Positions 7,513 through 30,800 of a stretch of DNA of 64,000 bases are shown one piece after another. Source of the DNA: Marsupella aquatica (lineage: Eukaryota; Plantae; Marchantiophyta). Location of the stretch: the NCBI GenBank assembly GCA_973895155.1, contig OZ316897.1:5779327-5843326 (forward strand), given 5' to 3'. The notes beneath the pieces are model-generated. The model had not been told where the DNA came from. It searched no databases and saw only the letters and a list, made by a program, of their open reading frames with translations. The first letter of the stretch is position 1. The number at the start of each line of letters is the position of its first letter. Made by a program: the position numbers and the translations under genes.

Positions 7513-10500
7513 TGTGATGCCTAGACAGGAATCACTCGGCCAGTTAAGTGGGTAAAGCAGGAAGGCACCCTAGGAACACCTTAGTATAGGGACAAAACAA
7601 GGAAAATATAAACCATTAGGGGCAACCATGGAACCCGGGCCGAGGCCGGAGGTAAGGACGCTGAGGGTGAAAACTCGATTAGGGTTAGGGCGCGTTAAGT
7701 GTCGGCGGCTAGGAAGGATCAACGGGAAGAAGGACCGGCAGAGGAGAGGGGTAAGGAGCGCTTGCAGGAGATGGTGGCTCATTTGCGAGCACGAACTAGG
7801 CAGACGACTACGGGAGGCCAACTACTGTCAACTGCTTAGGCAAGCACTCGGGGAGAGAGTAGATACCAACGATCGACCTAAGGAGGGTATGAGCAACGTC
7901 AATCAAGCGGCACATTTCTGGGGATGCCTGTTCGAACGGGCAACTGAGTACATCAAGACTTACGAGGACGAGGAATCAGAAAGGGCAGCTCGAGAACGGC
8001 AGGAGCTCGCTCGATTGTGGGAGCTGCAGAAGACGGCTTTCTTAGGAGGCGAACTCATCAAGGACGAGTTCCTGTGGACGCCTACCTCCAATCAACTCGA
8101 CGATCTTCTGTTTTGCAAAGACAGCGTCGTCGGCATCCGAGAGGCCATCAAGAACTGCAACGACATACACTAGGAATTAAAGGGTAGCACGGAAAGGTGG
8201 ACCCAGGCAACGGTGCTAGGAGAAACCTCCACGGCAGCAGAGATGAAGAGGAAGGGAGCCGTCAACGATGAAGCCACCCCGGCAAAAAGAACGAGGTCGG
8301 CGGCACCAAAGAAGCCAGCCGAGCAGCAGAGCAGGAGGCAGGGAGAAGCCGAAGAGGAGGAGGTCGATCCCATCAAGGCCATTCCAACCAAGGATGACAC
8401 CTGGAAGGGCTGGGCGGCAACCCTACCGGTGGAGGTGCAACTACATTTTGCACGGGAGGAGGATGCATGCTTTACGGCAATGCAGACCAAGAAGTATCAA
8501 GGCTTCATGGCCGGATCCGGCTTAGAGGCCTTTGTAAGATTACCATGGCTGAAGCCGGAGGTACCGGAGTCAGACCTATTAGAATTCGTGGGGTCATGGG
8601 AACCCGAGACCAATTGCACGAGGATATATGGGAAGGATTTCTATCTTACTCCCAAGGTAATTGCCGAAGTGTTTGGCTTGCCGATAGGCAATAAGACCAA
8701 AGTTGATACCAGGAAGACCTTGCCTGACAAGGAGTTCCGGTCGTTCCCCGGGCCATCAACGAAGAATGGCTTCTTCCGGAACACCTGCACCAACCCGCAC
8801 ATAGGAGAGATGATCGACTTCTTGCGGGTGACCATGCATTGTAACTTGCCGAGGGCAGAGATCGGCAAGGCACAGGTCTATCTGGCAGAAAGGCCAGACC
8901 CAAGCCGGGACTACAACGGGTACCTCCTCAACCAATTGAAGAAGATCTTAAAGGAGGAGCAGCAGGTAATCGGCATGGGGAGCGTGTCGCGGCTTGGCTA
9001 TCACATGCCGCTGTTGTGCCGGTATGCCAGAGGTCAGACTTTTGCCCCAGTACTTCCCCTACAGGTAAGGGCACCCGAGGAAGCTCCAACGCCGAGGCCG
9101 TTGGCTGAGAAGCCTCAACCACCTGTTAGCCCTACGATCGAGCAGGTGTTTAGGCCTAGGAAGGAGGACTTGCCGATGCAGCAACCAGGCATGCAGAGTC
9201 TGCTGAAACTACTGGAGAAAGAAAAGAAATCGGCATCGGCAACAACAACGGCAACGGCAACAATGCAGGACACTACTACAGAGGTAGGCCTACATCGGCT
9301 CACAAGAGAAAACCCCTTTGTTGGAGACAAGGAGAGAATCAGGCCGGAATCCAAGCCAGGTGTTCGAATGTATGTGGGAATCTCAAGCTCCGAATCTGAG
9401 GCAGAATTGCCTGAAGCTCCTACCGACAAAGAGGAGAGGGAGAAGCCGGACGTCCAAGAAGTAGAGGAGGCAGTGGAGGACTGCAGCCATGATAATTCTG
9501 GCTATGGGTCGGACCATCACGTTCCAGGAGTAAGGACCTGTGGCCGGTTTGTCCCCACACTTCCAAGGGTAGTGCGAGGGGACCCCAACCAGCAGAGTAG
9601 CCCTGAGTCTCCCCCACCAGATGTTGCTCCCCCGAGCTTTGACGGCATAAAACAGACGGTGCAAGAATTTCAGGAGCGAATCAGGCAGGAAGAGGAGGCA
9701 GCCCTGGCTAGGGAAAAGGATTTACCAGGAGGAGATTGGCCGGAGGACATCAGGCGGCTAGCCAAAAAAGGAAGCAAACCTCTAGCCACGATTGAAGAGA
9801 TCCGCAAGACGGCTTGGGAGCAGAGGCCGCGATGGGCGATGCCGATCACTTCTACTTACTCCACCTACGCTAAGAATAGAGCCATGGAGTATGGTGAGAT
9901 GTGTGGGGAACTTGCGCTCGGCATCTTTGGAGAGGAGTTGGAGGTAGGACCCTTTTTCCATAGGGAGCAGTTGGAGAAGCACCAATTAGAAGAAGCGGTG
10001 GCTTTAGAGAGAAGCAAGAAGGACGAGGTCATTCGGCGGCTTAGGAGGATGGAAGCCGAGATTGAAGATCTAAGGGCGGCCAAGAAATCCCAAGATGAAC
10101 TGCGGATTAAACGGCATGAGCTGAACATCATGCAGGGGCAGTTGGACACCGCGCAGGCTGATAATCAGAATATCAAGGATAAACTGACTCAGATGCAGGG
10201 AGAGTTGGCCGACACGATCAAAGAGAGGGAGAAGTGGAAGCAAGAGCTGAAGAATACAGAGGAGGCCCACATAACAGCCAACAGCCGGGCCATGGCGGAG
10301 ACCCAAAGAAAGGAATGGGCGTTGAAGGGGGAGCTCGAGAAAATCCGCGGAGCCCTTGAGCAGAAGGAGGCCGAGTTAGGGAAATCTTATCAAGGGATTA
10401 TGGCGCTGCAGCAGGAGCTTGCGTCCTTGACGGCCAGCTTCAAGGCCGACCTAAGGGAGAAGGACGAGATGCTCGATCAGACTTACGCCAAGATGAACCA

Positions 10501-12169
10501 GATGGAGTCTGTCATCATTGCAGAGCTCGACAAGGAGCTAAGAGCAACCCGGGAGGAGAGGACTACCTTGAAACAAGAATGGGAGGAAGCCCAGAAGGAA
10601 CTAGAGGCACGCAAGGACCTGGATGAGACCCAGGAGGAGTTGGAGGAAATCACGAGGAAGATGGAGAACCTCCAGCGGCGGGCCGACAACCAAACGGAGC
10701 GGCTGAAGAAACAAGCCGCAGCATTTAAGTGCTTGTCTTCATCAGGCCCAACTCCAATTGGGGCAACCAAGTTACCAGGAGTGGTACTGGCCGAAGAAAA
10801 AGCCGCGCCACCTGCACCAGTGCCGGAAGTAAGTGGGAAGGGGAAGGGACCAGCTGCCGAACCAGAAAAGAAGAAAAAGCGGAAACCTTCAGGGTCAAGG
10901 AGTAATCCGACTCCACAAGCCGTGGTGACCAAGGAGGTAGAACCAGCACCATCCTCCGGCATGAATACGGCAATAGATCCCGCTATCATCACAGGTGGGG
11001 GTGGTGCGGCCCAAGCCGAACTACTCAGTAATGAGGCCGGTATTCCAGATCCGCCTCTTGAGCAGGCCGGGGAGACCGTAGCCAAGGCTGAGGCCGTAAC
11101 CGATTCCCGAGCCGATGCCGACGCTGATGGTGGACCCAGTCAGGCCGATGGAGAGTTGACTCAGTCAAGGGCAGGTAATCTGTCAGAGAATGAACCTACG
11201 GCAGTGGCTGAGGAGGAAGCGTTGGGGGCGTCCATTAAGGATCCTCCACCGGTGTCGTGACGGTGCAAGGGCGCCGTTCCTTTTAGGGAGGGAGGAGGCG
11301 TGAGTGGGCAGGGCGGGCGCTGATCTCCAAGTTTAGGATTAGGATCAGGACCAGGAGCGGCCCTGACACTTAGCTTAGTGGGATTGCGGTTCCACTGGTA
11401 GGAGCAACACTTGTGCTCCTGCCTTGCTGTACATAGGTAGATTCGGGCAAGTAGATTACTGTTAGGTAGATTAGGCTTACGATGCAAAGAATGGCAGATC
11501 CACTACCAGGATAAGTCCCTGGGCAGCGGGGAGCTCAGGGCCTCTTCTTTAGCAAGTTTTTAGTTTGCACCAGCCGGGCTAGGATCAAGTAGTACGAGAA
11601 GCTCTCGGTTAGTCATACAGTGACCCTTGTGTATATTCATGTTTCCTCATGCCTAAGAGCTGAATAGAGTTGGCCTCACGGCTTAGTTCGCAGAGCTTGT
11701 GTATGAGATGTACTGTTTGTATGGCAAGTGCATGGTATGACTCAGTCAGAATGAGTCATTTTGCTATTTGTGTGTTGCATTAACTTGTGTGAAGAGTGCC
11801 CACATCAACCAGAAGGAAGGAAAGTAAGCAGGGGAGTGAGAGTTGGATGTGTCGAGCTGAGAGAGGTCTTAGCGGCTTAACCAAGCCTATTGGGGATCAT
11901 TCCGGCGGCGGAATCCAAACATACCTAACAAGACGGAGGGGAAGACAGGGGAAGACAGGGGAAGGCCTAGATTAGGCCAGCTACGTATCTCATGACCCGA
12001 TGAAGGATCTGTCCAGTATATGTGTGTAAAATGTTAACAGTAGTAGTAGAAGGTTAGCAGCGTCCCATGCCGCTAAGCCGCAGAAACGGCCTCGCCAAGT
12101 ACGAAACCTGCGGGAATCGGCTTGAGCTGGGGGGTTTCTTGGGTTTAGGGAGCCATGGGACGCACCACA
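7513..12169 (+). repeat. 3' LTR of element A (4657 bp, protein-coding)
   Basis: TGTGATGCC...GCACCACA; same boundaries as the TSD-flanked solo LTR at 37717-42375. Confidence 0.93.
7628..11260 (+). CDS. LTR-encoded protein of family A (N-domain, basic patch, PMD-like domain, long coiled coil); one premature stop at 8171 in this copy
   Basis: The 181-aa and 1015-aa ORFs are in the same frame, and the TAG at 8171 is TGG in copies C, D and the solo LTR. Consensus is 1210 aa from ATG 7628 or 1123 aa from ATG 7889. Motif YLTPKVIAEVFGLPIG resembles the plant mobile domain. Confidence 0.85.
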
Positions 12170-13051: not shown

Positions 13052-13527
13052 TGATTCGGCTAGGTTATAGTTGCTTTGTGGTGGACATGCAATGTGCTTT
13101 GTAGGACCTTTGTATCTCTATATCATATTGAATCTGAATAAAGACTCCCTCATGTTTTTCATTTTGAATGCATGTGCCAATTAATGTCACCACTGTCATT
13201 AACGTCGTGCGGATATAGTAACGTTGCAATACACAACGTCTTTGGTTTAATACATACCCTAAAACGACGTAAGTTAGTTTAACGTCGTTTTAAGTGGAGA
13301 ATCAACGTCGTGTGGAGTAACGTAAACTGGGTCGTGGCTAAATTAACGTCATTGAAGGCTCAATAAAACGACGTTAATTGGAATTAACGTCTGCCTGGTA
13401 CGACGTAGTTTGAAGATACATTGGTCTACCGAACATAATAGTCATACAACGATGTTACCCACAGATGCTACAAACCCACATGAAGGTGGCCATAACAAAT
13501 ATATACATGCACTGAATACATTTATGG

Positions 13528-14328
13528 TCATGGATCCATATCATCTACAATTACTGAAGCCATCAAACCCTTCCTCCGTCGTGGGAAGATGGGAATGACG
13601 ATGGACCATCCTCTCATAGTGTGCATCGGAACCATAATACACTGATCCACCTGGCTAGGAAATACTATAGTGTCACTAACCTCAGTCCCGGATGGTGCTA
13701 CACGAGTCGTGTCTACCCGATAGAACCCACACTCATCTTTCACCATGGTGGCTCTATGTGGAGGTGACATGATGGATTTGTGCCACCGCACCTCTAACAC
13801 AATAGTAGTAAATGACCCAAAGTGAACGTCTAAAATATCCAATATAGTGCCACAATAGGGAATCTCAACATCACCTGGGTCTGTCAACATGAACACTCCT
13901 GAGTTACATGTACTCTTCTTCATGTGATCTGTCCTCCAAGTGCGAAAGTGGTGCCCTGACTCATACATGTGTGTATGGGTCGTTGCCCACAACCCTGGTC
14001 CCCTAATGATGTTCTGTACATCAATGGGAATGGATAAGGGTCCATGCTCTGCAAGGAGCCTATCCATGCGCTCCAATGCCCATACGCAAAATAATGCATA
14101 CCGTCGTGCAACTATCGGTTGCTGCTCCAAGAATGCACTGCAAAAAATGTATGAATCCATGAGAATATTGCGACCTCATCCACAGAAGTGCTCCTTGAAC
14201 CCACTCTAACTTCTACACACATAGAATGTAGAACAACGTCTACTGTTAGATTAACATATATATAGAGTTGCATATATGTACCTATGCAACTCCCTCCACT
14301 GAGACATCTCTGGGCGATTTCCCAACAC
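13528..14328 (-). pseudogene. CACTA transposase (TnpD/Tnp2) C-terminal fragment, DUF4216-like
   Basis: HFRT...STCNSGV...YCGTILDILDVHFGSFTTIVLEVRW...KDECGFYRVD...IVFPSQVDQ...GWSIV follows the DUF4216 pattern; cut upstream by the LINE. Confidence 0.8.
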
Positions 14329-14355
14329 ATGGTAATGGTAATGGTAATGGTAATG
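14329..14355 (-). repeat. LINE 3' tandem tail (TACCAT)4
   Basis: ATGGTA x4 on the + strand, about 110 nt past the ORF2 stop. Confidence 0.85.
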
Positions 14356-14462
14356 TATTATAAGCTCCGGGACCATGAAAGTCAAAGGAGCTGCCACAAA
14401 AAGTAAAGTACAATGCAATCAAAGAAAAGAGCAACCAAAAGAGATTGCTCAGAAGAGGACAA

Positions 14463-17400
14463 CTATGTCCTCAAAGAAACTATGGACCTAGAGAGCCCTG
14501 AAAGATTTTCCAAACCTATTCTCCTTTCCCTATCCACCGCAAAGATATATCTTCCAAGTTGCTGAGGGGGCAGACCAAACAATGCATACAAATCTTTCAC
14601 CAAGATTTGAGATGCCATCCTAACACCCTCATAAAACTTGCAAGCAATGAATACATGATATTCATTCTCTATACTAGAGCTATCACATAGTTGACAAACC
14701 CTCTTTTTCCTGTCAATATCCTTCCATCTCCCTTGTTCTACTTCAAGGTGGTGTGAGCTTAGTCTATACTGAGCAATAAGTTGTCTAAGTTGTACTGAGA
14801 TAGTGCTAGATAAGTATTCTTGTTCTCGATATTTCTTCATGGGGTTCACATCTCTCATGTAGTATTGTTGCCGTGGGCTAGGTTCATGCCAAAGTTTGTG
14901 CAAAGCCTTTTGCTCAAGTTTTGCTCTTAGCTTGGTTGGGTGTGTTGGCCATTCATGTTCAGGAAAATCCCAAGCATGGGCCCATCTGCACACATCTGCA
15001 TACCACCCTGTAGCTGAAGATGAGCGCAAGGCATGAAAAGGAAATCTGTTTTCCTCCAACTCTCTTACACGCATGATGTATTTGAGTGTGTGGAAGAGTG
15101 CCTCCACCTCCAAAGGAAACAAGCCTGCCTCTGCAAGTGTAAGTGCATATGGGGTTTGTGACTTGATCCCAAGCTCCATCTCAAGAAATAGCTTTTGCAG
15201 CCCCTCAATCTGTTGCCACCCAGATTTAGACACACCTGCTCCCCAAATTGGTGCTCCATAAAGAATGACTGGTTTCACCAAAGCTCCAAAGAGATGTTTC
15301 CTTAACCTCCAAGTGTGTAGACCAGCTCTTTTGCATTTGTTCATGAATGCATAAAAAGCTCTGTACCCATTGGCAGCCCTAGATTTTACACATGAGGCCC
15401 AACTCAAGTTTTGAGAGAACTCCACCCCAAGGTATTTGTAGGTCCTCACAAATTCCACCAGATTCCCTTGGAAGTAGAGCTCTGGATTTTGTCGTGTGCC
15501 AATGCCCAAACACTTGGTCTTCTTGAGGTTGACTACCATCCCTGTTGCTTGACAAAACTCCTCCAAGGCATTGAGATGTCTTTGCAAAGCTTCTTGAGCA
15601 TGAGCAAGTAGGACCACATCATCTGCAAATATAAGAAGTTGGAGGACAAACCTACCCAATTGAGTGCCAACTCCACCATGCTCCTCCAAAATGTTGTGTA
15701 GCTGATCAATGAAGATGCCAAAGAGAGTTGGTGAGAGAGGACAACCTTGGATCACCCCAAGAGTGCTCCAGATTTCTTCAGAGGTTTCCTTTGAAAGTTT
15801 GATGTGCACTTCTTGGTACAATTTAGAAACAGCCAACCTGAGCTCTTCAGGCACTTCCAACTCCACCATCCTATCCCAAAGCTTGGATCGGGAAACTTTG
15901 TCAAAGGCCTTGGAGAAGTCCACAAACAAGCAAAATAATGGTTTATGTGGAGATTTGGCCTTTTCACACAACACCCTCAAGCAGAGAATGTGATCCATAG
16001 TGCTGAATTCTCTCCTAAAACCTGCTTGTGAAGGTGCCCTTTTCATCTCACTCTCCAACCAAGAGCTTAATCTGGCTTCAAGTAGTCCTCCCAAAACTTT
16101 AGCAAAAGTATTGCCTACCATGATGGTTCTGTAGTTGTGCACATCGTCCTTGTTGCCTGCCTTGAAGATAGGCACCACTCTTCTGGTCATCCAAGCTTTA
16201 GGTAAACCTAAAGCCATTGCTTGATTCAGCTCATGCACCAAGTTTGTTAGTAAAGAGGGTCCTCCCCACAAAAGAAGCTCCAAGTTCAGGCCCAACAGAT
16301 CTTTAGCTTTCCCATGTTGCATGTGGGAAAGATGCACCTTCACCTCCCTCTCTGTAAACTGAATGGTGTCCCCAAGGGGCAAAGGCATGCCACTAGCATC
16401 TGGAAAGAAATACAAGGATGTGACATAGGTTACCAGGTCCTGGTGATCCAAGGGGGGAGTAGTCTTGCCTGATTGCATTCTCTCCCAAAAACGTTTTGGA
16501 TGTTTGATGAACTCCTCACATAGTGATTGTTGATGACTCTTCAAGAAGCACCTCTTCTTGTGTTTGATGAAGTTCTTGTACATAGTGAATGCCAAAAATC
16601 TCTTTTCCCCTGAATGTGATCTTGCTTGCATCCTTGCTCTAGCACAATCCTCGTCAAACCAAGCCTTCATGTTTTGCTTTCTAGGGGGTTTGGTGGAGAA
16701 AGTAGAGGCTGCTGCTTGTGCTATGACTTCTGAGAGCTCAATCTGATCATCCAGGGTATGGAGAAGATGTTTAAAGTTGGCTTTGAAGATGACTTCTCTA
16801 TCAGGGTCTAGAAACAGAGGTTTGGGTACTGGCTTTCTATGCACTTTGTTTGGGATTGTGGTCAGGTCAAGATGGAACAACAAAGGCAAGTGTGAAGACT
16901 CTGGTTGTTGATCAAGTATTTGAAAGTCAACCACTCTAGTGGCAGAGGTAGGTGAGGCAAGAAGGTAATCAATGGTACTACATCCTTGTTTAGATCTAAA
17001 AGTGTAACCAGATGATTGGGGAAATCTCTCAAGCCCATTCAATATTCTTAGATTACAAGAAGCTCCCAAATGCAAAAAGTGACGTGTCATGTCATTTGTT
17101 CTGGTGTCAAGAGCCTCTCTCACCCAAGGTATCTCTTCACTACATGATGACCAAGGTAAAGTTCCTAAGTCCTCACTTTCAGTAAATTGTTCATTAGATA
17201 CCCTAGCATTAAAGTCCCCCACTATCCATGTCTCCCCTAGTGGTGATATATCATGAATGACTTGGATTAACCTATGAAATGGATAATGTGCATCAGCAAT
17301 TCCCATCTTATAGACATTCATATTAAGGGGAGCAAAGTAGGTGACAATCAGAAATGATGGAGTACCTCTGGTATGAAGTCTCACCACCATGAACTGCTTG

Positions 17401-17666
17401 CTGGGATCTTCATGTTCAATAGAGGTGATGTGTTGAAGTTGATTCTTGGTGTAGACAGCAATGCCTCCAAACCCTCTTCCCCGTGTGGTCTTCTTCTCAT
17501 TGAAGATGGATTGTATGCAAGTAAAGCCTTTAATGCTAGGTAGAGCATTTCCCTCATATTCCCAAGTCTCCGTGAAAAGCAAGATGTCAAAATTCTCAAA
17601 CAAAGGTTCCCCTCCAATTGCTGTTTCTATGGAAAGTCCTGAAACATTCCATGCCATGACTCTCAA
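14463..17666 (-). CDS. LINE ORF2: AP endonuclease, reverse transcriptase, C-terminal CCHC-type motif (1067 aa)
   Basis: EN motifs MAWNVSG, FTETW, VGDFNA, TIDY, SSHLP; RT motifs NYRTI, QAGFR, FVDFSKAFD, GVIQGCPLSP, FADD, YKYLG; C-terminal CQLC...EYHVFIAC. Confidence 0.95.
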   Translation of the reverse strand: MRVMAWNVSGLSIETAIGGEPLFENFDILLFTETWEYEGNALPSIKGFTCIQSIFNEKKTTRGRGFGGIAVYTKNQLQHITSIEHEDPSKQFMVVRLHTRGTPSFLIVTYFAPLNMNVYKMGIADAHYPFHRLIQVIHDISPLGETWIVGDFNARVSNEQFTESEDLGTLPWSSCSEEIPWVREALDTRTNDMTRHFLHLGASCNLRILNGLERFPQSSGYTFRSKQGCSTIDYLLASPTSATRVVDFQILDQQPESSHLPLLFHLDLTTIPNKVHRKPVPKPLFLDPDREVIFKANFKHLLHTLDDQIELSEVIAQAAASTFSTKPPRKQNMKAWFDEDCARARMQARSHSGEKRFLAFTMYKNFIKHKKRCFLKSHQQSLCEEFIKHPKRFWERMQSGKTTPPLDHQDLVTYVTSLYFFPDASGMPLPLGDTIQFTEREVKVHLSHMQHGKAKDLLGLNLELLLWGGPSLLTNLVHELNQAMALGLPKAWMTRRVVPIFKAGNKDDVHNYRTIMVGNTFAKVLGGLLEARLSSWLESEMKRAPSQAGFRREFSTMDHILCLRVLCEKAKSPHKPLFCLFVDFSKAFDKVSRSKLWDRMVELEVPEELRLAVSKLYQEVHIKLSKETSEEIWSTLGVIQGCPLSPTLFGIFIDQLHNILEEHGGVGTQLGRFVLQLLIFADDVVLLAHAQEALQRHLNALEEFCQATGMVVNLKKTKCLGIGTRQNPELYFQGNLVEFVRTYKYLGVEFSQNLSWASCVKSRAANGYRAFYAFMNKCKRAGLHTWRLRKHLFGALVKPVILYGAPIWGAGVSKSGWQQIEGLQKLFLEMELGIKSQTPYALTLAEAGLFPLEVEALFHTLKYIMRVRELEENRFPFHALRSSSATGWYADVCRWAHAWDFPEHEWPTHPTKLRAKLEQKALHKLWHEPSPRQQYYMRDVNPMKKYREQEYLSSTISVQLRQLIAQYRLSSHHLEVEQGRWKDIDRKKRVCQLCDSSSIENEYHVFIACKFYEGVRMASQILVKDLYALFGLPPQQLGRYIFAVDRERRIGLENLSGLSRSIVSLRT

Positions 17667-17678
17667 GGTCCCAATCCA

Positions 17679-18452
17679 TCATTTAGAAACAACTCTCTTC
17701 TTATTGGTAACAACAGCTTGTCCATTGCGCAAGTAAGCTACCAATCCTTGGTCTTTGGCTACCCTCACCTTCTCAAGCTCAATTTTCCTTGCTTGGACTT
17801 GTGTGGGAGTCAGATCATCATCCAACCAAATCCTTAGCCCTTTAAGCATGCTCCTGTTAGCCATCACTCTAGCTTTCTCGGATTCAGCTGCAAACTTCAC
17901 CAAGATTGGACGTGGAAGGTCCCCCTTCTTTTGCCCAATCCTATATGCTTGCAAAATGATAGGGTCATGCACTTTCATCTGAGATTGGAAGAATGAAATT
18001 GCTACCTTCTTGGTGTCTTCCTTCTCCTCCTCAACAAGGCCTGATATTTTGCAGTTGCTGACTCTTGCATGCTGGTTCTTGTGTTCTTCTTCTAGTGCTC
18101 TCCTCTCCTCCTCCTTGGCTTGGACAAATTCCATATGTGATTGTTTTGCAGCCTGTGCAAAGGTTTTGAGCTTCTCCTCAATCTCCCCTACAGCCTCATG
18201 TATCACTGATTTCTCTAGGCACATACTCTTCTCCATGTCTCCAAAACACGATGCAAGCAATGAGAGTTGCTTACCATTCTCCTGAGTTTGAGATCGAAGA
18301 TCACTAATCAACCTCTTTTGCTTGACATTCTCATTCTTTAGCTCCGTCACCTCCTTGCTGAGCGTGGTAATCTCAATTGCGGAGTTTTCAGCCACAACTA
18401 AGATTTTCTCAAGCAAAGCCTTGAGATGGGCAATCTCCTCCGTTGCCATCAC
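17679..18452 (-). CDS. LINE ORF1 (coiled coil plus RRM-like region, 257 aa)
   Basis: Heptad-rich N-terminal half; ISGLVE...AYRIG...PRPILVKF...IWLDDDLT; ends 12 nt before ORF2. Confidence 0.85.
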   Translation of the reverse strand: MMATEEIAHLKALLEKILVVAENSAIEITTLSKEVTELKNENVKQKRLISDLRSQTQENGKQLSLLASCFGDMEKSMCLEKSVIHEAVGEIEEKLKTFAQAAKQSHMEFVQAKEEERRALEEEHKNQHARVSNCKISGLVEEEKEDTKKVAISFFQSQMKVHDPIILQAYRIGQKKGDLPRPILVKFAAESEKARVMANRSMLKGLRIWLDDDLTPTQVQARKIELEKVRVAKDQGLVAYLRNGQAVVTNKKRVVSK

Positions 18453-18514
18453 AAAGCTGAAACTGTTGTTAGAATGTACTCTTAGATGACAAATAGAAAT
18501 TGGGAGCAGTAGAG

Positions 18515-19256
18515 GATGTCAGTTGCAGCTCTACCTTTGCCAGTGATACACTCTCGCTGTTTGCAACACTCTGCCAAAATCTGAGCTCAAACCGCAGCCG
18601 ATTGCCCTTCCAACTCGAAGTGAAATTTCGCCCCAAGCTCAGAATCCCGAAACTGGACACGTAGCAGATCGTGCATGCTAAAGTGCATACCAAACGATGT
18701 CGGTTGCAGCTCTAACTTTGCCAATGATACATTCTCGCTGTTTCCAATGCTCTGGCAAAGTCTGAGCTTAAACCATAGCCAATTTCCCTTCCAACTCGAA
18801 GTGAAATTTTGCCCCAAGCTCAGAATTGCGAAACTGGAGACGTAACAGATCGTGCATGCTAAAGTGCATATCAAACAATGTCGGTTGCAGCTCTAACTTT
18901 GCCAGTGATACATTCTTGCTGTTTCCAATGCTCTGGCAAAATCTGAGCTCAAATCGCAGCCGATTGCCCTTCCAACTCGAAGTGAAATTTCACCCCGAGC
19001 TCAGAATCGCGAAACTAGAGACGTAGCAGATTGCGCATGCTAAAGTGCATACCAAACGATGTCGGTTGCAGCTCTAACTTTGCCAATGATACATTCTCGC
19101 TGTTTCCAATGCTCTGGCAAAGTCTGAGCTTAAACCGCAGCCGATTGCCCTTCCAACTCGAAGTGAAATTTCGCCCCAAGCTCAGAATCCCAAAACTGGA
19201 CACGTAGTAGATCGTGCATGCTAAAGTGCATACCAAACGATGTCGGTTGCAGCTCT
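18515..19256. repeat. Tandem array, 181-bp unit, about 4.1 copies
   Basis: Units start at 18515, 18696, 18877, 19058 and 19239 (GATGTCGGTTGCAGCTC). Confidence 0.95.
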
Positions 19257-20760
19257 TCCCCTGCTCTAATGGTGCGGGTAGCATGTGTCAAGATGTAATG
19301 CGTGCATGCTACAGGCAAACGAGGGTGACTCTGGTCATGGAACTCGTGCCACTCAGCATTTGGCCTAAACCCTGAACGCCGAGAACCAATAGTGCTGTTG
19401 ATGTAACCCGCCAAGTTCCCCGTGCGAGGTGGGTAACCATCAATCTGAGCATACCTAGGGTCCAACTTTAGTGACATGCCATATCGACTAAAGGTTGGGC
19501 ACTGTCGGGACAAGATGCGCCATCTTGCCGCCGAATACTTGGGCCCATAGAATGGAAACAACTGAGGCAAATCATCGGGTGCACAATCGATAGGGACCAC
19601 GATATCCACAAGAGCAAATACTCCAAGTCCTACATGAGTCCCCAATGTGGAGGGGAGGATGACCCATGGGCGGTCCCAAACTATAATAGGCTCCCAAAGC
19701 GGGAGGTCCATAGGGAGTCCAAACTGGGCTGGGAAGGAGTCCTTTAAGATGTCCAAGGCTCTCCCTCGCAACTGTCTCGGTGCTCGGGACACCGATGCAT
19801 CAAGAAAAGGGCATCGGGGTGGAACAATCCTAGGTGGACGGGACTCAATCGATCGGGGTCTAGTGGTCACCACTACTCCCCTCTCAATAGGGTGCATCCT
19901 AAACACTCTCCTCCTCCTCCGAAATACACGGTCTATCTCCCTCAATGTGGCTGGCAAATTGGATGGATGGACGAGTGGTGCGAGTGCACGATATGCAATG
20001 TCTCTCAAGCGGTCCACAAGCAAAGATCGCACTACAACAGGAATCTGTTCCACATGTTCACCAAAACAAGTTCAGAATATGACAATCAAAAAACAATTCA
20101 AGGAAGGAGATGTTATCATAATTGCAATACCCAACAAAATTGTATTACCTCTCGGGTCGGGGGGGTGTAACGACCATGGATCCCTAAATGGCTAAGGACA
20201 GTGGTCCTCTCGTGTAAGACAACACCCTTGCATCGTCTGCAAGGGCAAGGCATCTTGCGAACTGGCCCAATCCCCTAAAGAGCAGCCATGGCCTCTCCAA
20301 ATCCATCAGCATGATGGGGGCTCCAGCCTCTCCTACCCTCGGAATGATGTCTGCGTCGACGACGCCTGGATCGGTGACGCCTAGATCGATCATACATGTC
20401 TGGTGAGTAATCTCTCTCCCGGTCCGACAGGTCGTCCCTCCCCCTATGATGATGGTCATCTCTGCGTCGGGTGTAAGTACCCCCACCATGGTTCTCATAG
20501 GATGAGTCATCCCTCCTCCTCCCTCCCTCGTCATCCCTCCTCCTCCGCCGCTCGTCATTGCTCCTATAGCCCGATGAAGCTGAACTCCCCCTATGCCAAT
20601 GATGGTGTCTATGTCGGTGAGAACTACCGCCATGCTCATCGTCATCATCACACGAGTCATCCCTTCGCCTATCCGACTCATCATACGTCCCCCTATGATG
20701 ATGATGGTATCTGTGCCGATGATGCCTGCCCCCATCATGGTCCGATGCATAGGTTGCCAT
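19251..20760 (-). pseudogene. Spliced gene: His/Arg/Asp-rich N-terminus, CACTA transposase-associated zinc motif, SET domain (3'-truncated)
   Basis: Exon 1 20760-20149 (one stop at 20275) ends MPCPCRRCKGVVLHERTTVLSHLGIHG...; phase-0 GT-AG intron 20148-20045; exon 2 carries GLGVFALVDI, GNLAGYINS, PNAE and ATRTIRAGEEL, cut by the 181-bp array. Confidence 0.75.
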
Positions 20761-21175
20761 ATCCCCTATGATCAAATTTACAAAGGCCCCCACAACATAT
20801 TAAACCCCAAGCATAAACTTATCCCACTACGTTAACCAAAATAACGTCCATCCACACGACGTTCTTCTAAAATTAATGTCATTTTTTAGGTTATGGGGAG
20901 GTTGCTGAATTTAGTTTACGTCATAATGTACGACATACTTAATAAGTTAACGTCGTTTGGTAAGACGTAATTATGTGTAACGTCGCCACTAAACCCTACA
21001 CCCCTGGTTAACGTTGTGATTAATGACGTTAAATTAGGGTAACGGCGGGTCTCCAAGGTTCATGGGCTACGGCTATTTTCCTTTAACAAAACATCAGGAA
21101 GTGACTCAAATGTGACTCACATTCAACATTCAACACTTCCCCTCTCCCCCTCTCGACCTCCTATCTTAACAGTGA

Positions 21176-23081
21176 ATGACTATGGCTCATCCAGGCTGTC
21201 TCCCTTCCAGTGGAGATTTTGATGCAGACTTGGTGGCTATGGATGATCCAGGGGAGTTAGAAAAGGTGCGTAAAGCTATGCAATCGACACATTCGCTGAT
21301 ACATGCTTTCAACCAGAGTTGGAAGTTCTTGGGAGGAAAAGGAAGCAAGGAGTCTCAGTTTCTGGAGTACCTGGAAAATATAGAGGCCAATGCTCCTGCC
21401 CTCGATGATTATGTGGAAACTAAGAATGCAACACTCTTGGGGGAGGATGGGGGGCCTTCGATCGATGCTCTCAACTCCTTCCTGTCCCTACTAGATGATG
21501 GGTGGGATGATCCTGCCTTCAATGGAATGCAGCCTGATTCTCAGGCACCTAGTGGGACCCCAATCAAGAGCGTGGTCAGGGTAGCACATGACAGATTCCA
21601 GCGGTCAGGATCGGGACTCTCGCAGGCGGAGGAGGCATCATGATAGAACACACAACAGCAATAGCAGCCTTGATGAGAGAAGACGGAAGGGGAAAGGGAA
21701 GGAGTATAGAGATGCAGATCCACACAGTAGAGGTACATACAAAAGAAGAAGAACAGAGGGAGATGCAAGGGCAGACAGAAGAGAGAGGTACTCACCTCAG
21801 CGTGAACGTCACTCCCACAAGAACCGACAACCTTCTCCTGTGCGACCTGTAACTACTGCTGTGAGTTGAGACAAACTCCCAACCATCACCTTGGATGCGT
21901 TTGATGCTAGGCCGGATGTTCTGGATGAGAAGGCCCTCACAAATCGAGTGCAGACGTGTTGTGCCAAGCACTATCCTGGTTGGACAACTTGGAAGGATCT
22001 TGCGCAGAACCCAAAGAAGCTTCAGCTCCTCCTGAACGATGTGCAAGCTGGGTTTAGGAACGGCCGTGAAAATAGACTACAGGCACATCAGACAGAAGAT
22101 CGTAGGCTACCTTGCAGATCGGAGGTTTAGATGGAGAAACAAGGTTCAAAAAATGAGATGCCCAAGGACAGAGCAATACCTGAAACCAGAAGGAATGAGC
22201 GACGCCGACTTCAATTGATCGTGGCTGAGTTGGAAGTAGCACCTGACACCCCAGTAGGCAAGCGAGTGCACATGGGGGACAAAGCTGCTGCAGCCCGCAA
22301 ATCAAATGGCCGCCTGCGTGTGACCAATTTCTGGGGCCAGGGAGGATGGCGAGGCTTCCTTGCAACCTATGTAAGTCCCCCACCCTCTTCAAAGCACAGC
22401 TTGTTCATGCTTCGGCCGCTGCGGTGAGAACATTGAATTAAAGTCGTTTTTCTCCTCTAATGTCGCAAGTTCTCAATTTTACGTCTAAACCCCCTACGTT
22501 CATCCTACCTAACGTTGTCTCTCATGACATTACATTTAATTAACGTCGTTTTTGCATCGTTAATATGGCAGTTCCACTATATACCTTGTCTTGGACAACG
22601 TTAATTAGAAAACGTTGTTAGGTACATTGTAATTAACGACGATGGTGACGACGTTCTCCAATTTCCTGTAGAAATGCAAGTTTGGAGCCAACGTCGAGCC
22701 AAGTGAGCAAGAGCGGCTCTATTCAAAACGCTATGGCACGGCGGCCCTATGGGCTAAGCTGGACTCTATCCCCAAGGACCACCTAGTGGTAAGTTACATA
22801 GTCAGGTTAGGTTCCTTCTATACTAGGTTTTGCATCCACTATTTGCAGGAGGTAAACTGATCCCTTATGTCATGTCCAGGAGGATTGGAGTCCTCCAGAG
22901 GGGTTAGTGGCACGGCCCATTGCGGAAGATGAGGAGGCAGATCATGGAGGGGAGGAGCCTGATACGCAGGAGGAGGCCTTAGTAGACTGTGGGCAAGAGG
23001 GCAGTTTAGGTACATAGGGCAGTCATCTTCTAACCTCTCCCCTCCAGTGGAGACTGATAGGGGTCATACCAGCCATAGACG

Positions 23082-23130
<49 letters not shown>

Positions 23131-23330
23131 AGAGAGGGGGAGGGAGGGAGAGACATAGAGAGAGGAAGAGGAGCCGTGTCGAGAGGGATACCACTAGGGG
23201 ACACAGTGGCACTAGAGATGTAGTCCCTAGGAGTAGAGGCAAGGGAGCTGCGGAGTTGGTGTCTGGTAGCAGTAGTTCAGACGAGGATCCACTTCGGTAC
23301 GAGTTGCGGCCCCGAGGCAAACAGTCAGAG
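21176..23330 (+). pseudogene. Decayed spliced transposon-associated gene of unknown function, divergent from the SET gene
   Basis: Chain of frameshifted ORFs with an Arg/Ser-rich segment; GTAAGT donor at 22371; repeat-filled intron to an AG near 22670. Confidence 0.35.
23085..23116 (+). repeat. (GA)16 microsatellite followed by a purine-rich tract
   Basis: Direct reading. Confidence 0.95.
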
Positions 23331-24089
23331 GCACCGCCATGTATTTCTATTCGCAGGTCTGGACGTGATAGGAGTCGCTCTCAGCGGCATTAGGGTATAC
23401 CATGCATGACTAGGTGGACATCCACCTGCATTTTGTACATTTTTGGCAAAAACTTTTGACGCCACCCATTTATAGTGGCATTCCGGACTTCATATGTCTA
23501 TTTTATGTGTATTCCGTGTGTATATGAACCTAAACCTAAAGCCCACCCAACTAAGGTAGCCTGGAAGGATGTTCCATACAAGATTAATGTTTACCACAAA
23601 TGGCACTCCATTCACGTCTCTCCATTCTTGGTACTATTTTCAAACGTTCTCGTTAACACCATTTTTACCAAGCCTCACACGACTTACTACTCATACGTCC
23701 TGGACAGACTCATCATTAACAAAGTCACAAACTACGTAATCTGACATTAACGTCGTTTTAAACGATGTTATCAGCTGATTTCCCTGTTCAATCTGCGTCC
23801 AGAATAACATCTTTATTTACAACGTTAATATGTAACGTAGTATGGACCGACGTATGTAATGTCATTTTGGACGATGTAAACTGTAACCTTTGTTACTTCA
23901 TACAAAACGTGCCCTCATTCACGTCGAGTATGTCGCCTTTCTTTAGCAGCAAGGAGATGTCGGGCTTAACGTCTTCATGTAACACGTAAAAAGTCCTGAT
24001 AATGTAGTTGTGTTACCCGCTGTACCGGCGGCATCACAGTGCCTTGTATTCTTCAGATTTTGTCTGTCCCTACGATTTATGAGCTGTTT

Positions 24090-25384
24090 TGCCGGTGAGG
24101 GGGGAGCGGGAGCATAGAGCTCCATGCAGAACCGCTCCACTTCTTCCAGTACCTCCTGCTTGTCTGTCACCGTTGTACCCTCCTCCCCTTCTAGGACCCT
24201 CATAGCTTCTCATTCTCGTTTGGCCTTGACAGTTGCAAAAAAGAACTTAGTAGATTCCTCCCCCTCGCCCAGCCATTTTACTCTCGCCATTTTCCTGCAT
24301 TGGTATGCTTCTTCAAATTTGGCTACATGTAGTTTGTCTTCTAACAAGAAAAGATTGAGAGCGTTTGCCTCAGAGTAGTCCTCTACTATAGTGCTTTTTA
24401 AAGCCCTGACTTCCTCCCTTAGGAAGTGCATCTCTTCCGCTGCTTATCGTGGAGTAGCCTGTATCTCCATATATTGTTTCCTTAGGCTTTTGCTGCTCTG
24501 GAAACTTGTAGGTGTGGGTCCTGCTCCTCAGCTCCTCCTGTACACCATGCTGCCTCTAGTAGCTTAATGTTTGCTTCTGAACGTAGAATAGACGAATTTG
24601 CTTTAAAGAATCTTACTCTACCTCTTTCATCTTCCTTCTCCGCCCGTTGTAAACAGAATATGGCAATGATAGGGTCGTGGTCCAAAAGGGCAGTACCCCC
24701 TTCGTGCGTAATTGATACTGTACCCTCCAGCCACCAGCCCTTATTGCTAATGTAGAATCGGTCGAGTCTTGATTGTGTCAGAGAATTGTTGCGCTGCCTT
24801 CTCCAAGTGTACCATGACCCTATTATGCCTCGGTTGAGCTCTTTAGCATCGATCAAATCCAGCCTGACCTCTAGGAATCTCCAATACTCCGCTTCTTGCC
24901 CTTTCAGTAAAGAAGCGCCTCCAGATGAATCCGTCCGGGATTCCGTCATATTGAAATCGCCACAGAGAATCCAGTTGGCTTGTGGCAGCTCCAGTTTTAG
25001 ATCATGCCATAGTAGAGCTCTCAATCTTGAAGAGTTAGGAGCGTAAATGCTTACCACCCCCAACGTGTAGGAGGGCATCTCAATTGTTACCCATGCTGCT
25101 TTCCCCAGTGCAAGTTTGCCCGATGTTATGATCTGTAGTGAGGGGTGGATCAATAAGGCCGTTCCGCCACGTCCTTCATCCGGTTCTGCCAAAAAATATT
25201 GGTATGACGGTAGAATTGCCCAAAGTGCAATATCGAGTCTAAATTGGTCTACTTTGACTTCTTGTAATGCTAGAATCCCAAGTGAGTCTTTCAAAGAGCT
25301 CACCCAATTTTGTACTACATATTTCCTGTTGGGCTCTCCGAGCCCACAAACATTCCACGAGGCAATCGTTAGTGTGCTATCCAT
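24090..25384 (-). pseudogene. L1/Tx1-type LINE ORF2 5' fragment (endonuclease and linker)
   Basis: SWNVCGL, LQEVK, SIYAPN, WILCGDFN, SRLDRFY, DHDPI, then KWLGEGEESTKFFF; RT absent. Confidence 0.88.
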
Positions 25385-26037: not shown

Positions 26038-26090
26038 GAGGGGGCATTTCTTAAGCCGTGAGATATGAAGTTAGGAAGGAAGCGTGGGTA

Positions 26091-29000
26091 ATGACTGAAC
26101 CTACGCCGAGAGAGGAAAGAGCAATTCAACGGGAGAGAGCTCGTCTGCAGCAGCTCGCCGGGTGGCATGATACACAGCGACTGAGAGGGGCAGAAAGAGC
26201 TAGTAGCTCCGTAACTGAAAGTGGCATCGAAGAAAACATACCAGAAGAAGGGTCGGTAAGGAGAAGTGAGTCTCCAACCGACATGGGGGAACCAGAGGCA
26301 CGGCCAGACGAGAGGCCAGGGACCAGACTGAGCCAACGGTCGCGTATTCATTACAAGGCCTTTCATGGAAGAGGAGATGAGGATCCGGACGAATGGTTGG
26401 ATGACTTCGAAGGAACCGCTGCAGCAAATGGAGAATCGGCTATTAAGATGCAAATTCTTCCCGGCCTGTTCAAGGGTGAGGCTAGGCCTTGGTACAGAGC
26501 ATTGGACGTAGAAGATCAAGCCATCTGGAATACTTTCAGATCACTATTTATCAAGGAGTTTCGACCCATTGGAACTTCAGAGTTAGCAGTGCTAAAGTTG
26601 GGACGACTTCGGTTCAAGGAGAACAAATCCTTCAGGAAGTTCTTGCAACGCTTCCAAAAGCTGGTAAGACGTACAAAGACCAATGCATCTGAAGGTATGC
26701 AACTTCAATGGTTAGTGAATGCTTTGCCACAGAAGATGAGTTTTGCAATTAGGAAGGAGAATCCAAAGACTTTAGCCGAGGCAATTAGAGATATTCAATT
26801 ATACATTAATGCAGATATCACAAGCCGGAAGAAACAACTTAAGTCTGAGAGTTCCTCATTGGAGGAAGGATCACCCCATAAGAAAAAAGATAAGAAAAAG
26901 AAACATTCTAAGAAGTCAAGAAGTGATAACTCAAGCTCGGATAGTGGCAGTAGCAAGAGTGAGTCATCTTCTAGTTCTGAAGAAGAAAAATTTAGGAAAA
27001 AGAAGGGCAGAAGGAGGGGGAAGTTGAAAGTCAAACTAGAGGCTAAAACGCCAGATAACATCATAGCCCTTACCGAGCAGCTTAAGGCTATAATAGTAGA
27101 GGTAAAACCAAAGAAGAAGGTAGTACAGGAGGATAGCTATGTATGGTGTACCTTATGTTATAAAACCGGACACCATAAAGATGCGTGTCCTAAACTTAAT
27201 ACCAGTCATGTTCGGCATGTGGCCGAGGTCAGACCGAGTCAGGGAGAAGTAGAGTACTTCCTAGGAGATGCTGCTGATAGTGTTTTCGGCATCAGTGAGA
27301 CTGGAGCATGAGATCTATCCAACCGACCTGAATCTCTCTGGTCAGGATTAAGGAACAATCCGGGAGAGATGTATCCTCGGATTATTCAAAATCCGTCAGT
27401 ACCTCCTAGGCCGAATGTGCAAAGATTTGCGGCATGCTATAATTGTGGCCAACCTGGCCATTTTGCTAGAGAATGTCTGAATGCACGCAAACAAGGTGAT
27501 GGACAACCAGCTCAGCTATGTATGGGATGCCGACAGGAGCGTCACATGCTAGGACAATGTCCTACTTGGTTGGCAGGCCTGGCCGCAAATCATAAGCTCT
27601 TGCCAGTCAAGGTTTTACCGCCAGGTACTACCCCTGGAGGAGTTCAAATCAACCACATCGAACTCGGATGGCAAACGGATGCCAAAGCAGAGTTCGGACC
27701 ATCCGATGATGAGGCCAAGGCCCTATCAACCTTCTCAGAGGAGGATTTGGATCATGATTGCTACCGGGTCTCTACTCGATCTACCAGAAGGAAGGAAAGG
27801 TGGGATGGGTTGGCCAAAAATAAAGGGAAGGATAAGGAAGAAAGAATCGACTCTTCGTCAACATCAATAGAAGGGGAAGGAAAGGCATCGGCAACACATG
27901 TAAGCCATGAGCCCACCAGTGAGCCCAATCCCTCAGAGGATAGCGACTTCAATCGAGATCACCCCAAGTTGTTCTACCCCTCTATTACGGCTAGTGTTAA
28001 GGAACAATTGCGAGAATTAGAAACCTTGGAGAATACCGAAGCTATAGCGAAGGATGTGAAACGAGCAAAAGCGTTGTTTGCTTCGGAGGATCCAATGGTT
28101 GTGGAAACCAATGTGGAAAAACAGGCCGAAGCCAAGATGAAGACACCGCCAGAAGAGAAGCCGATAGTTCCCTATGACCTGGCTAAAGATGTGCTAGAAT
28201 CTAGAGTCTTGGCAACCGTAGGTCAACTATTGAAAAATATCCCGTACTTCCGGAAGCAGTTAAGGAAGGCGATTCTCGGCAAGCCGAGATTACCCAAGGT
28301 AGCAACCAAATCCGATGTGCTGATGATAGAAGAAGATCAAGGAGCCCCAGCATTACCATTAATGATTCAAGGAGAAATATTATTGCGAGTACCCATTGAT
28401 GGAGGATCCGGGGTATGTATTATGACTGATTCAACAGCAAAAGGATGGGGTCTAACACTGGAGATGACTGGAAGAGTGTTAAACATGACCAATGGGTATC
28501 AGGTCATTCCCACGGGAGTGTTAACCGGCATCAAGACTAAGATAGGAGGAATCTTCTTTAGCATTAATTATGTAGTAATCAAGCCGGTAGACCCTACGTT
28601 GTTTAGGCTTTTAATTGGCAGGCCATGGCTGTACCTAGCCAAAGTAATAGAGGATTGGGGTAAGAAGGAGTTCACCTTTGGGGCCCCATCTATCACGGTA
28701 TCCTGGGACACCAAGGATGACCGCAGGAAAAACATCAGGGAGATAGATGGGTACGACAGTGGACTGGAATCCGCCGATGAAGTACGTTGGCTAGAATGCC
28801 TCACTGACCTAACCAAAGAAAGTGTGTTTGGATCGGAAGTGCCCCCCACCGGACTATGGCACGAACCTATGGAGAGTAACCTGGAGGAAGGTGAAGAAGA
28901 GACCGAGGATTGCTTTGCCATAGAGTCAACATTTTTAGCTTCAATTCCGGAGGAGACACACTTAAGAGGCGGATCGGCTAGATGAAATGGCTAGATGCAC

Positions 29001-30800
29001 CAGAGATAGTGGATTTTCCTCGGGCGTTGTGGCAGAGCCAACAGGATCCACAACGCCGTCTATCATCGGCAACAAATTAAATACCAAGGGATCGGCTTAC
29101 AAGCCGATCACAAGGGCAGAACAAATTGAGGCCCTGCTAGAAGCCGGAAGAGCACGACGGCCTGACCCTCAGGAAGCAGGAATAGATAAGATGCACGGGA
29201 AGAAACCAGAGCCGAGTCAGGAAGGGGAGCCGACAACCAATTCAAAACCAAGCAGAACGGTAAGGGAACAGTCTGTTAATAACCAGGGAGAACCTAAGTC
29301 AACCAATTTGGCTAGTACTGCCGAGATTCCAGTCTATGGAGGTATGAGACTGGAGAGGCTGGAAGCCGAGTTGGACCCAAATTTGAAGAAGCAGATTAAT
29401 ATGATCCAAGCACGGCAATACCGGAAGCTAGACTTAGGAGAAGGAAGGGAACTGAACTTGGGGCGGGACCTAGCACCTGAGCTTGAGAAAGAGATCAGTG
29501 AATTACTAATTGAATTTCAGGATGTGTTCGCATGGAGTCACCAAGATCTGAAGGGAGTAGACCCAAAACTAGGAGAACACCGAATCGATCTCATGTTAGG
29601 GGCCAAATCATTTTGACAACCGATTTGAAGGATGAACCCTAAGTATTCTCTGATGGTCAAGGCTGAAATTGATAAACTAGTGGAAGCCGGATTCATCACT
29701 CCAGTCCTGCATTCAGATTGGGTGTCTCCAATTGTGATAGTTCCCAAGAAAGCTGGACCCAATGGTAATTAAACCAAAGATCCGGGTTTGTCAGGATTAC
29801 AGGAAGTTGAATGAGGCTACGTTAAAAGACCATTTTCCATAAGACATCCACTGCACCCTATTCTACCTCTGGCACCATTTGAGAAGTGGGGTATTGATTA
29901 CATTGGACCCCTGAAACCATTGACCCATCCTCGAAGAAACAAGTACATAATCCTGGCCACAGATTATGCAACTAAGTGGGTAGAGGCCAGGCCGACAACG
30001 AAGGATGATGCAATTACTACGGCTCGATCATGTATGAGCAGATCTTCACCAGGTATGGCGCACCCTTAGAATTAGTTAGTGATAGAGGAACCCATTTTCT
30101 GAATGATATAATCAGTCGTTTAAATGAGCAGTATTTAGTTAGACATAGGTCTACTACTCCCTACCACCCAAAGGCAAACGGGTTGACAGAACGAGCCAAT
30201 GGAATTATAGGAAAAATATTAAACAAAACTATAGCCTAGAACAAACTCGATTGGGATGATAAATTGTTTGCTGTTGTTTTTGCTTACAATTTAGCCTATA
30301 AATCCACTACCGGTCATACACCTTTTTTCTTAACCTTTGGGCAGGAAGCTCTGGTACCCATGCAACTTGAGATCCCTACATTTCAAGTTACAATTGAGGA
30401 GAGAACCTCAGAGGAGGAAAGCCTAAAGGATCGAGAATATAGATTAGAGGCCTTAGAAGAGGCAAGAATGATTTCAGCCGAGAGAGTAGAATATAGACAG
30501 AATACCATGAAGCAGCGGTATGATAAAAGGTTGAAACTAGTTAGTATTCACACAGGAGATCTTGTATTACTTTATGATAGTAGGTATAGTAGGTTTCCGG
30601 GGAAACTTTACACTTGCTGGTTAGGACCTTTCAGGGTATCAATGAAGTTCTCTAATGGCTCTGTGCAATTGGCCAACATAACTGGAGAGGTGTACCCAGT
30701 TCGCATCCATTACGACCGCCTCAAGAAATACTATATGGACGAAGATGAAGTTGTTCGCGAGCACGCTTCACAATTAAGTGGGGAGCTATGTGATGCCTAG
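26091..30800 (+). pseudogene. gag-PR and deleted pol of copy C
   Basis: ORFs of 417, 538, 209, 69 and 178 aa match element A; about 1.47 kb (A 5098-6564) is missing. Confidence 0.9.

Follow-up and report, generated by a model that had tools for sequence, protein, structure and literature searches.

What is a SET domain doing inside a transposon of a liverwort? The question is raised by a 64,000-nucleotide (nt) stretch of Marsupella aquatica DNA (GenBank assembly GCA_973895155.1, contig OZ316897.1, positions 5,779,327 to 5,843,326; this whole stretch is called the window below). An initial annotation, made from the letters alone, had seen there a CACTA-type gene that fuses a transposase-associated zinc motif to a SET domain, and had taken it for a chimera native to the transposon and not for a passively captured piece of a host gene. 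According to the data described here, the window probably contains a dead copy of a bryophyte-type CACTA (EnSpm) element, the first gene of which consisted of a Transpos_assoc-like zinc exon, a short predicted intron and a SET exon, and which was truncated by a long interspersed nuclear element (LINE). The anatomy of the copy, the SET family with its fold, its place between the zinc exon and the Tnp2 transposase in relatives, the purifying selection between subfamilies and the LINE junction are direct observations. Intact relatives in liverworts may well use the predicted zinc-SET protein to mark chromatin. Few transposons possess chromatin- or DNA-modifying enzymes of their own, and those that do provide natural tests of mobile DNA against silencing.

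A divergent SET family under selection

The search with the SET frame of the window returned 26 relatives among 954 candidates with E-values from 4.1e-85 to 7.9e-22, and the SET observation is therefore far beyond chance. The window was aligned with 22 of these 26 matches, the short fragments P0008, P0017, P0018 and P0020 being left out, and the profile search with the 23 sequences registered 171 cluster representatives (E≤0.001), of which 100 reach E≤1e-10 and 43 reach E≤1e-30. Named members from liverworts belong to Riccia sorocarpa (n=6 proteins) and Calypogeia fissa (n=4), more distant ones to the fern Adiantum nelumboides (E 7.2e-6) and to Ginkgo (E 1.3e-12), with one protein each; all others originate from metagenome or run assemblies. 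Invariant positions in the alignment are the second Gly of GxG (G150), the Tyr and Asn within GYINS, and the motifs PNxEW and A..I..G; very little variation is seen at the first Gly (G148) or at Glu and Tyr in the C-terminal motif (D/E)E(I/L)xxxY. We take these positions to be those of the GxG (S-adenosylmethionine-, AdoMet-binding), NHS and ELxxxY (catalytic Tyr) motifs of SET domains. Family members end 4–15 residues past this Tyr and have no post-SET zinc cluster.

At E≤0.1 the Pfam SET profile (PF00856, curated cut-off 22.4 bits) was matched by 22 of the 23 aligned sequences; the sole miss was the truncated 271-amino-acid (aa) SET piece of the window itself. Several relatives exceeded the cut-off (among them P0063 with 35.6, P0131 with 34.2, P0013 with 26.1, L004 with 25.3 and L007 with 23.5 bits). 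Profile comparison with sequences of the PDB was marginal, giving its best E of 0.078 to MLL1. The AlphaFold model of P0001, which is the closest full-length relative (59% identical to the window piece), has a mean predicted local distance difference test score (pLDDT) of 84.9, and Foldseek matched it to 203 PDB entries at E≤0.001, with probability 1.00 to active enzymes; the matches listed are all SET lysine methyltransferases (LegAS4, MLL1, SET7/9, SETD8 and NSD1). As modelled, P0001 has the SET fold, and the family is a divergent branch of SET proteins.

Comparison of nonsynonymous and synonymous substitution rates (dN/dS), which had been suggested as a check, was carried out by NG86 on 178–180 codons. 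Between L003 and the group of L004 the ratio was 0.28–0.37 at dS 0.42–0.47, and inside the L004 group, among young copies, it rose to 0.6–1.4 at dS 0.03–0.07. Such a pattern is expected of a gene that is functional in the active lineage but degenerates once copies are inserted, and a passively captured fragment would behave differently. Between subfamilies, selection on the SET domain is purifying.

Linkage of the zinc motif with the SET exon

For the 52-aa piece with the zinc motif the best Pfam match was Transpos_assoc (PF13963; E 6.9e-5, 23.4 bits, positions 34–61 of 74). The same family came out on top, below its threshold, in 4 of 11 pieces, namely the window, L002 (5.2e-4), L001 (1.9e-3) and L010 (0.023); the matches lie within positions 30–64 of 74 in three of these four and span positions 14–61 in L010. 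In the protein atlas the three named clusters nearest to the zinc piece are all PF13963, with scores of 0.89–0.90, which is to be taken as a lead. Based on this resemblance one can read the motif as the putative Cys/His half of the Transpos_assoc domain. The name given to it in the initial annotation is thus backed by the best Pfam match and by the nearest named atlas family, but not by a score above the cut-off.

That the two exons belong together had also been proposed, and other copies bear it out. Metagenome contigs were scanned, and 199 stretches matched, 18 of them encoding a relative (L001–L018). A C.C..C motif followed by H...G was found in 11 of the 18 loci, 350–460 nt upstream of the SET match; the zinc exon of these loci is located 100–200 nt upstream of the SET frame. 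By coordinate count these are 11 of the 12 loci with enough upstream sequence, six others being too short and L017 a true miss. A phase-0 GT donor is situated about 12–17 codons past the zinc motif in the window and in 10/10 loci examined. Both parts appear in one chain, behind a low-complexity N-terminus, in P0057 (423 aa, encoded on a 2141-nt contig) and in the Riccia gene models P0056, P0072 and P0113.

Position inside CACTA-type elements

Downstream of its SET frame and on the same strand, locus L004 has frames that match Transposase_21 (E 1.3e-39 and 9.4e-8), DUF4218 (1.4e-31) and DUF4216 (4.8e-7), and the order in L012 is the same. The N-terminal frame of the transposase was registered after the SET frame in ten loci (L004, L005, L007–L010, L012–L014 and L016), which count as one family because they are 88–98% alike. 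Independent of them are gene models of Riccia sorocarpa that combine the SET family with Transposase_21 in one protein (P0100 of 773 aa, P0113 and P0132); P0113 unites the zinc motif with Transposase_21 as well. In the relatives the zinc-motif exon is the first coding exon upstream of both SET and transposase, all on one strand, and in the transposase frame of L004 itself no Transpos_assoc match was obtained at E≤0.1.

This frame opens right after CATAG, a possible phase-0 acceptor; as evidence it is weak, the chance being about one in three because AG closes one of the three stop codons. The arrangement at L004:588–760 recurs in L005, L007 and L012: past the SET stop come about 150 AT-rich nucleotides that end in CATAG, and the transposase frame begins on the next base, so that the boundary looks like an intron-exon border. 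Splice fusion of SET with the transposase was considered for the L004 family and is not claimed, because an in-frame GT donor is missing at the SET stop. The Riccia model P0100 suggests such a fusion; it is an automatic model.

In the window the transposase is represented by a C-terminal remnant, to which tblastn with the L004 frames aligned DUF4216 at 13863–13540 (E 1.85e-11) and DUF4218 at 14076–13942 (E 0.004). No Pfam match was obtained for this remnant (13528–14175), and the Transposase_21 core is absent from the window copy. Subterminal repeats of the AACGTCG type are present on both sides of the gene: the window contains 8 matches of TAACGTCG where 0.56 would be expected, and 7 of them fall between 13200 and 23755, with clusters at 13200–13376 and 20948–20985 and two further copies at 22541 and 23748, and inverted repeat pairs connect the 13188–13400 side with the 20830–21040 side. 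From the transposase remnant and the subterminal repeats it follows that the window holds a CACTA-type element with its middle missing. The assignment to CACTA made at the outset is therefore upheld both by the Tnp2 transposase downstream in the relatives and by these remains in the window.

Structure of the Marsupella copy

The features of the copy are collected in Table 1. The ATG at 20760–20758 is the start of a frame of 161 codons, many of them for His, Arg and Asp; after the TAG the same frame continues as GIGPVRKMPCPCRRCKGVVLHERTTVLSHLGIHGRYTPPTRE, as far as 20149. The last codon of exon 1 is GAG (20151–20149), it is followed by GTAATA, and the intron closes with CAG at 20045. From 20044 on, exon 2 (IPVVVRSLLVDRLRDIAYRAL..., beginning with IPVVV) proceeds, by codon count, in the phase of exon 1, and the SET motifs GLGVFA, GNLAGYINS...RPNAEW and ATRTIRAGEE come between 20044 and 19253 in the expected order. 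Coordinates and frames thus agree with the reconstruction offered in the initial annotation, in which reading through one stop and a phase-0 intron of 104 nt yields a His/Arg-rich head, CPCRRCK...HLGIHG and ordered SET motifs.

Table 1. Features of the CACTA copy and of the LINE inserted in it (positions of the window)
Feature	Position	Strand	Basis or comment
Low-complexity His/Arg/Asp-rich N-terminal coding stretch	20278..20760	-	starts at ATG 20760-20758
TAG stop in frame, particular to the window copy	20275..20277	-	G at 20277 in runs X1-X4, giving CAG
Cys/His zinc-motif part, exon 1 (MPCPCRRCKG...HLGIHGRYTPPTRE)	20149..20274	-	resembles the C-terminal half of Transpos_assoc
Intron, predicted (phase 0, 104 nt, GT...AG)	20045..20148	-	equivalent phase-0 GT donor in 10 related loci
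SET-domain exon, frame without stops, 8 codons short of the natural stop	19253..20044	-	relatives and other copies
181-bp tandem monomers, read as LINE 5' untranslated region (UTR)	18515..19256	-	CTCT 19253-19256 common to the SET exon
LINE body: open reading frames ORF1 and ORF2, 3' UTR, (ATTACC)n tail	14322..18514	-	Pfam matches, sequence, depth step ~14369
LINE ORF1	17679-18449	-	ATG at 18449, 66 nt from the array; frame also delimited as 17679-18518
LINE ORF2, endonuclease and reverse transcriptase	14463-17678	-	Exo_endo_phos 1.8e-10, RVT_1 7e-31 (Pfam)
LINE tail (ATTACC)n	14322-14361	-	sequence
CACTA transposase C-terminal remnant (DUF4218 end and DUF4216-like)	13528..14175	-	tblastn with L004 frames
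AACGTCG-type subterminal repeats, 3' side of the element	13188..13400		repeat motif counts
Subterminal repeats of AACGTCG type, immediately before the ATG of the gene	20830..21040		repeat counts, inverted pairs

The TAG is a peculiarity of this copy. G, not A, occupies position 20277 in nearly all contigs of four public runs (17 in X1, 10 in X2, 4 in X3 and 4 in X4), in X1 with a depth of 13943.7 out of 14109.7. Since the triplet is CAG in nearly all contigs of the four runs, read-through is justified as a reconstruction of the family, where Gln stands at this place, but not as a property of the window copy, to which the TAG is specific. The head itself varies. Before the zinc motif the N-termini of relatives are also of low complexity, Ser/His-rich in L002, charged in P0057 and Ser-rich in P0113 and P0072; many other copies, judged by loose ends of contigs, depart from the window sequence upstream of 20301, and the His/Arg-rich head is therefore not common to the whole family. 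Contig joints from 20057 to 20170/20171, tried as possible traces of splicing, were set aside as copy variants: their sides comprise 24–27 letters, they have no GT-AG ends and they break the frame.

Insertion of a LINE and decay of the copy

Other copies in the public runs extend to the left of 19253, where the minus-strand translation reads IFVDYDWH-stop (loose ends of 3 contigs in X1 and 2 in X3), in agreement with the C-terminus of the SET family. These copies, like the relatives, keep an intact C-terminus with its Tyr in the form (D/E)E(I/L)xV(D)Y, while the window copy stops at ...RAGEE (19253), so that the last 8 codons are gone, the Tyr of ELxxxY among them. A cut just before this Tyr had been noted correctly in the initial annotation; the accompanying 6-nt microhomology AGCTCT is shortened to 4 nt (CTCT). 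The six letters came from a Leu codon that was assumed and is not present in sister copies; because these continue as IFVDYDWH-stop, the SET sequence ends at 19253 and only CTCT is common to it and the array.

The array adjoining the SET frame at 18515–19256 has a period of 181, 4.1 copies and 90% matches (Tandem Repeats Finder). Downstream of it on the minus strand come ORF1 and then ORF2 with an apurinic/apyrimidinic (AP)-type endonuclease and reverse transcriptase, as in non-long-terminal-repeat retrotransposons of the LINE type. Word depth in X1 was 74,183–135,031 for the array and 116,014–133,564 for the 3' end of the LINE, about 10 times that of the CACTA parts (four runs examined), and the public runs show a depth step at about 14369. 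Position and depth, the latter a weak hint, suggest that the 181-bp array represents the 5' monomers of the inserted LINE. The LINE (about 14330–19256), which is nearly full-length, took the place of the last 8 SET codons together with about 2.9 kb of the transposase gene, as compared with L004. In mouse L1 tandem 5' monomers serve as promoter. The inserted LINE resembles L1 in having ~200 bp tandem monomers directly before ORF1 and a 5' end truncated within a monomer and joined through short microhomology; it differs in being a plant LINE of another family, and membership of the array in it is deduced from position and depth.

With both a stop codon and the truncation, the window copy is doubly dead, and no function of the intact element is possible for it. 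Its value is that of a dated broken witness, with a clean 5' junction of the LINE, a 4-nt microhomology and a deletion of ~2.9 kb. Between the window and other copies, at 19000–21100 and 13100–14500, transitions (A>G, T>C, C>T, G>A) account for most of the differences, a pattern expected from decay of methylated repeats; the TAG at 20275–20277, derived from CAG, is one such change.

Interpretation and alternatives

Several observations weigh against the reading as a CACTA element with a zinc-SET gene, and they are of different kinds. Both domains are faint in the window: the 23.4 bits of the zinc piece are under the 27.7-bit cut-off of Transpos_assoc, and the 313-aa frame, compared with PF00856 as the initial annotation had advised, scored 15.6 bits (E 0.022), below the cut-off which relatives such as L004 and P0063 do pass. 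The intron is predicted: contigs of runs X1–X4 have no joint at 20045–20148 and look like DNA. Fused forms were reached by the profile search alone and are mostly automatic gene models, and the word-index search for longer relatives (476–2000 aa) found none. Three local alignments and a 16-mer scan revealed no CACTA termini; besides matches between subterminal repeats they gave one weak candidate pair, matching at 12 of 16 bases between 13188 and 22647. No target-site duplication was found, none being sought without defined ends. Two further points, the common Met of some relatives and the altered NHS motif, lead to interpretations of their own.

Five relatives (P0001, P0004, P0005, P0006 and P0007) share an initial Met in one alignment column, which is situated barely within the SET exon and where an N-terminal helix, modelled with confidence, begins; a stand-alone SET protein is therefore possible. 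In that case SET would be a separate gene, translated from its own ATG inside the first coding intron of the transposase gene, the zinc exon would serve the transposase only, and there would be no chimera. Most database members, which are 225–300 aa long and have no zinc motif, suit such an arrangement. However, most of these Met starts are prokaryote-style gene calls on short metagenome contigs, and the SET exon of the window offers no Met until about residue 62 of the frame. The charged N-terminus, the zinc motif and SET make up the single protein P0057, the Riccia models P0056, P0072 and P0113 unite the zinc and SET parts, and the donor is in phase 0 wherever it was examined, with the SET frame open in the same phase. 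Taken together, these data make a nested gene rather unlikely. Another possibility is that the fold persists as a catalytically dead module for binding, an adaptor, for instance, to histone tails or to the transposase. The YINS of the window, which the initial annotation had marked as replacing the canonical motif, is indeed a family trait: nearly all aligned members have Ser in place of the His of (F/Y)xNHS. Loss of this His inactivates SUV39H1, and its family-wide replacement makes methyltransferase activity uncertain; the weak similarity to solved SET enzymes and the early C-terminal end, already described, can be counted on the same side. At the same time GxG, Asn at the NHS position, and both Glu and Tyr in ELxxxY are invariant or nearly so across members that are 30–60% identical, as would be expected of a working active site, and the modelled fold of P0001 matches active enzymes. 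We consider a dead domain improbable.

CACTA elements often acquire host gene fragments, and the window copy itself is broken, as would befit a host SET fragment captured passively, in the manner of Pack-CACTA transduplication, and of no use to the element. What is conserved in 171 clusters is nevertheless a whole domain and not a fragment, in separate lineages it keeps a fixed position and strand with respect to both zinc exon and transposase, and dN/dS is about 0.3 between subfamilies. This explanation is very improbable and close to refuted, and the opposite claim of the initial annotation has gained in substance from the breadth of the family, from its selection (0.28–0.37) and from its fixed place before the Tnp2 transposase.

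The probable interpretation remains the one given at the beginning, a CACTA copy with a zinc-SET first gene interrupted by a LINE. In intact elements the zinc exon would likely be spliced either to the SET exon or, past SET, to the transposase exons, so that one transcription unit might encode two proteins, one joining the zinc finger to SET and the other joining it to the transposase, just as TnpA and TnpD come from one unit of En/Spm. This arrangement, in which both proteins have the zinc exon in common, is proposed from the linkage of zinc and SET in other copies, from the lack of a Transpos_assoc match in the L004 transposase and from the possible acceptor in front of the latter. The protein with zinc finger and SET would, by prediction, act as an AdoMet-dependent lysine methyltransferase; the zinc module or contact with the transposase would carry it to the ends of the element or to target chromatin, to the benefit of the element. 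In its most extended form, that one zinc exon heads both the transposase and a SET methyltransferase setting histone marks on the AACGTCG-bearing ends or on landing sites, by which the element escapes or steers silencing, the proposal is a doubtful one. If the two-way splice and the enzymatic activity are true, bryophyte CACTA elements would make a compact testable system, with a transposon-encoded histone writer aimed by the DNA-binding head of the transposase itself.

Comparison with known elements

Maize En/Spm, a CACTA element, produces TnpA and TnpD by alternative splicing of one transcription unit. The present family is of the same superfamily, according to Transposase_21, DUF4218 and DUF4216 of the relatives, and has short subterminal repeats as well; the common 5' exon with two products is a further likeness in the proposal only. 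The second product here is SET-bearing and not a DNA-binding protein like TnpA, alternative splicing is proposed, and the Transpos_assoc-like module consists of the Cys/His half alone, placed after low-complexity sequence. SETMAR of primates is a fusion of a SET gene with a mariner transposase, an immobile host gene that captured the transposase. It is similar in that SET and transposase share one gene model, as in Riccia P0100, and different in that SET is here inside a multicopy mobile element, its fusion with the transposase coming from automatic gene models.

SET cargo has been described in several DNA transposons. The accessory gene PAG2 of red-algal Plavaka elements, which belong to the EnSpm/CACTA superfamily, encodes a DNA methylase and a SET domain (bioRxiv 10.1101/2025.02.11.637652). 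Such an element is the nearest parallel in being an EnSpm-superfamily transposon with a SET-domain accessory gene; it differs in lineage, in giant size (17–19 kb) and in the added DNA methylase domain, and no zinc exon common with the transposase is described in the passages considered. HarbingerS and Phytophthora MuDR elements acquired genes of SET histone methyltransferases (Kojima and Jurka 2014, cited in PMC12730594), and Helitron captures of SET are cited in the Bostrychia preprint (10.1101/2025.02.11.637652). All of them are DNA transposons with SET cargo proposed to act on epigenetic marks, though from other superfamilies and hosts (oomycetes and others). The passages considered of PMC11982613 contain nothing on the subject. 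SET cargo is known in HarbingerS, oomycete MuDR, Helitrons and red-algal Plavaka, and the interest of the present case is in its family-level design: in the literature covered, with Repbase Reports and subscription journals mostly outside it, no SET exon was found between the zinc exon and the rest of a land-plant Tnp2-type CACTA element.

Other features of the window

About 400 nt from the ATG of the CACTA gene and in the opposite direction, plus-strand open frames of 155, 94, 86 and 98 aa occupy 21176–22430; neither Pfam nor the related loci gave a match to them. Further clusters of AACGT-rich repeats were observed at 22440–22660 and 23700–23990, and the frames could therefore represent a second gene of the element or part of a non-autonomous relative next to it. 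A fragment of a second, different LINE (23943–25384, minus strand; endonuclease domain with E 2.5e-18) is cut on its 3' side where the AACGT-rich repeat region ends, which suggests that the DNA transposon or a relative of it was inserted into this fragment. Three retrotransposons of the Ty3/Gypsy type, at 1414–11260 (plus), 26055–37000 (plus) and 51644–64000 (minus), carry gag, zinc knuckle, reverse transcriptase, RNase H and integrase; in at least one of them these are followed by a very long extra frame (8174–11260, 1028 aa), which is coiled-coil-like and has no Pfam family. A (GA)n microsatellite of 40 units is located at 23085–23164.

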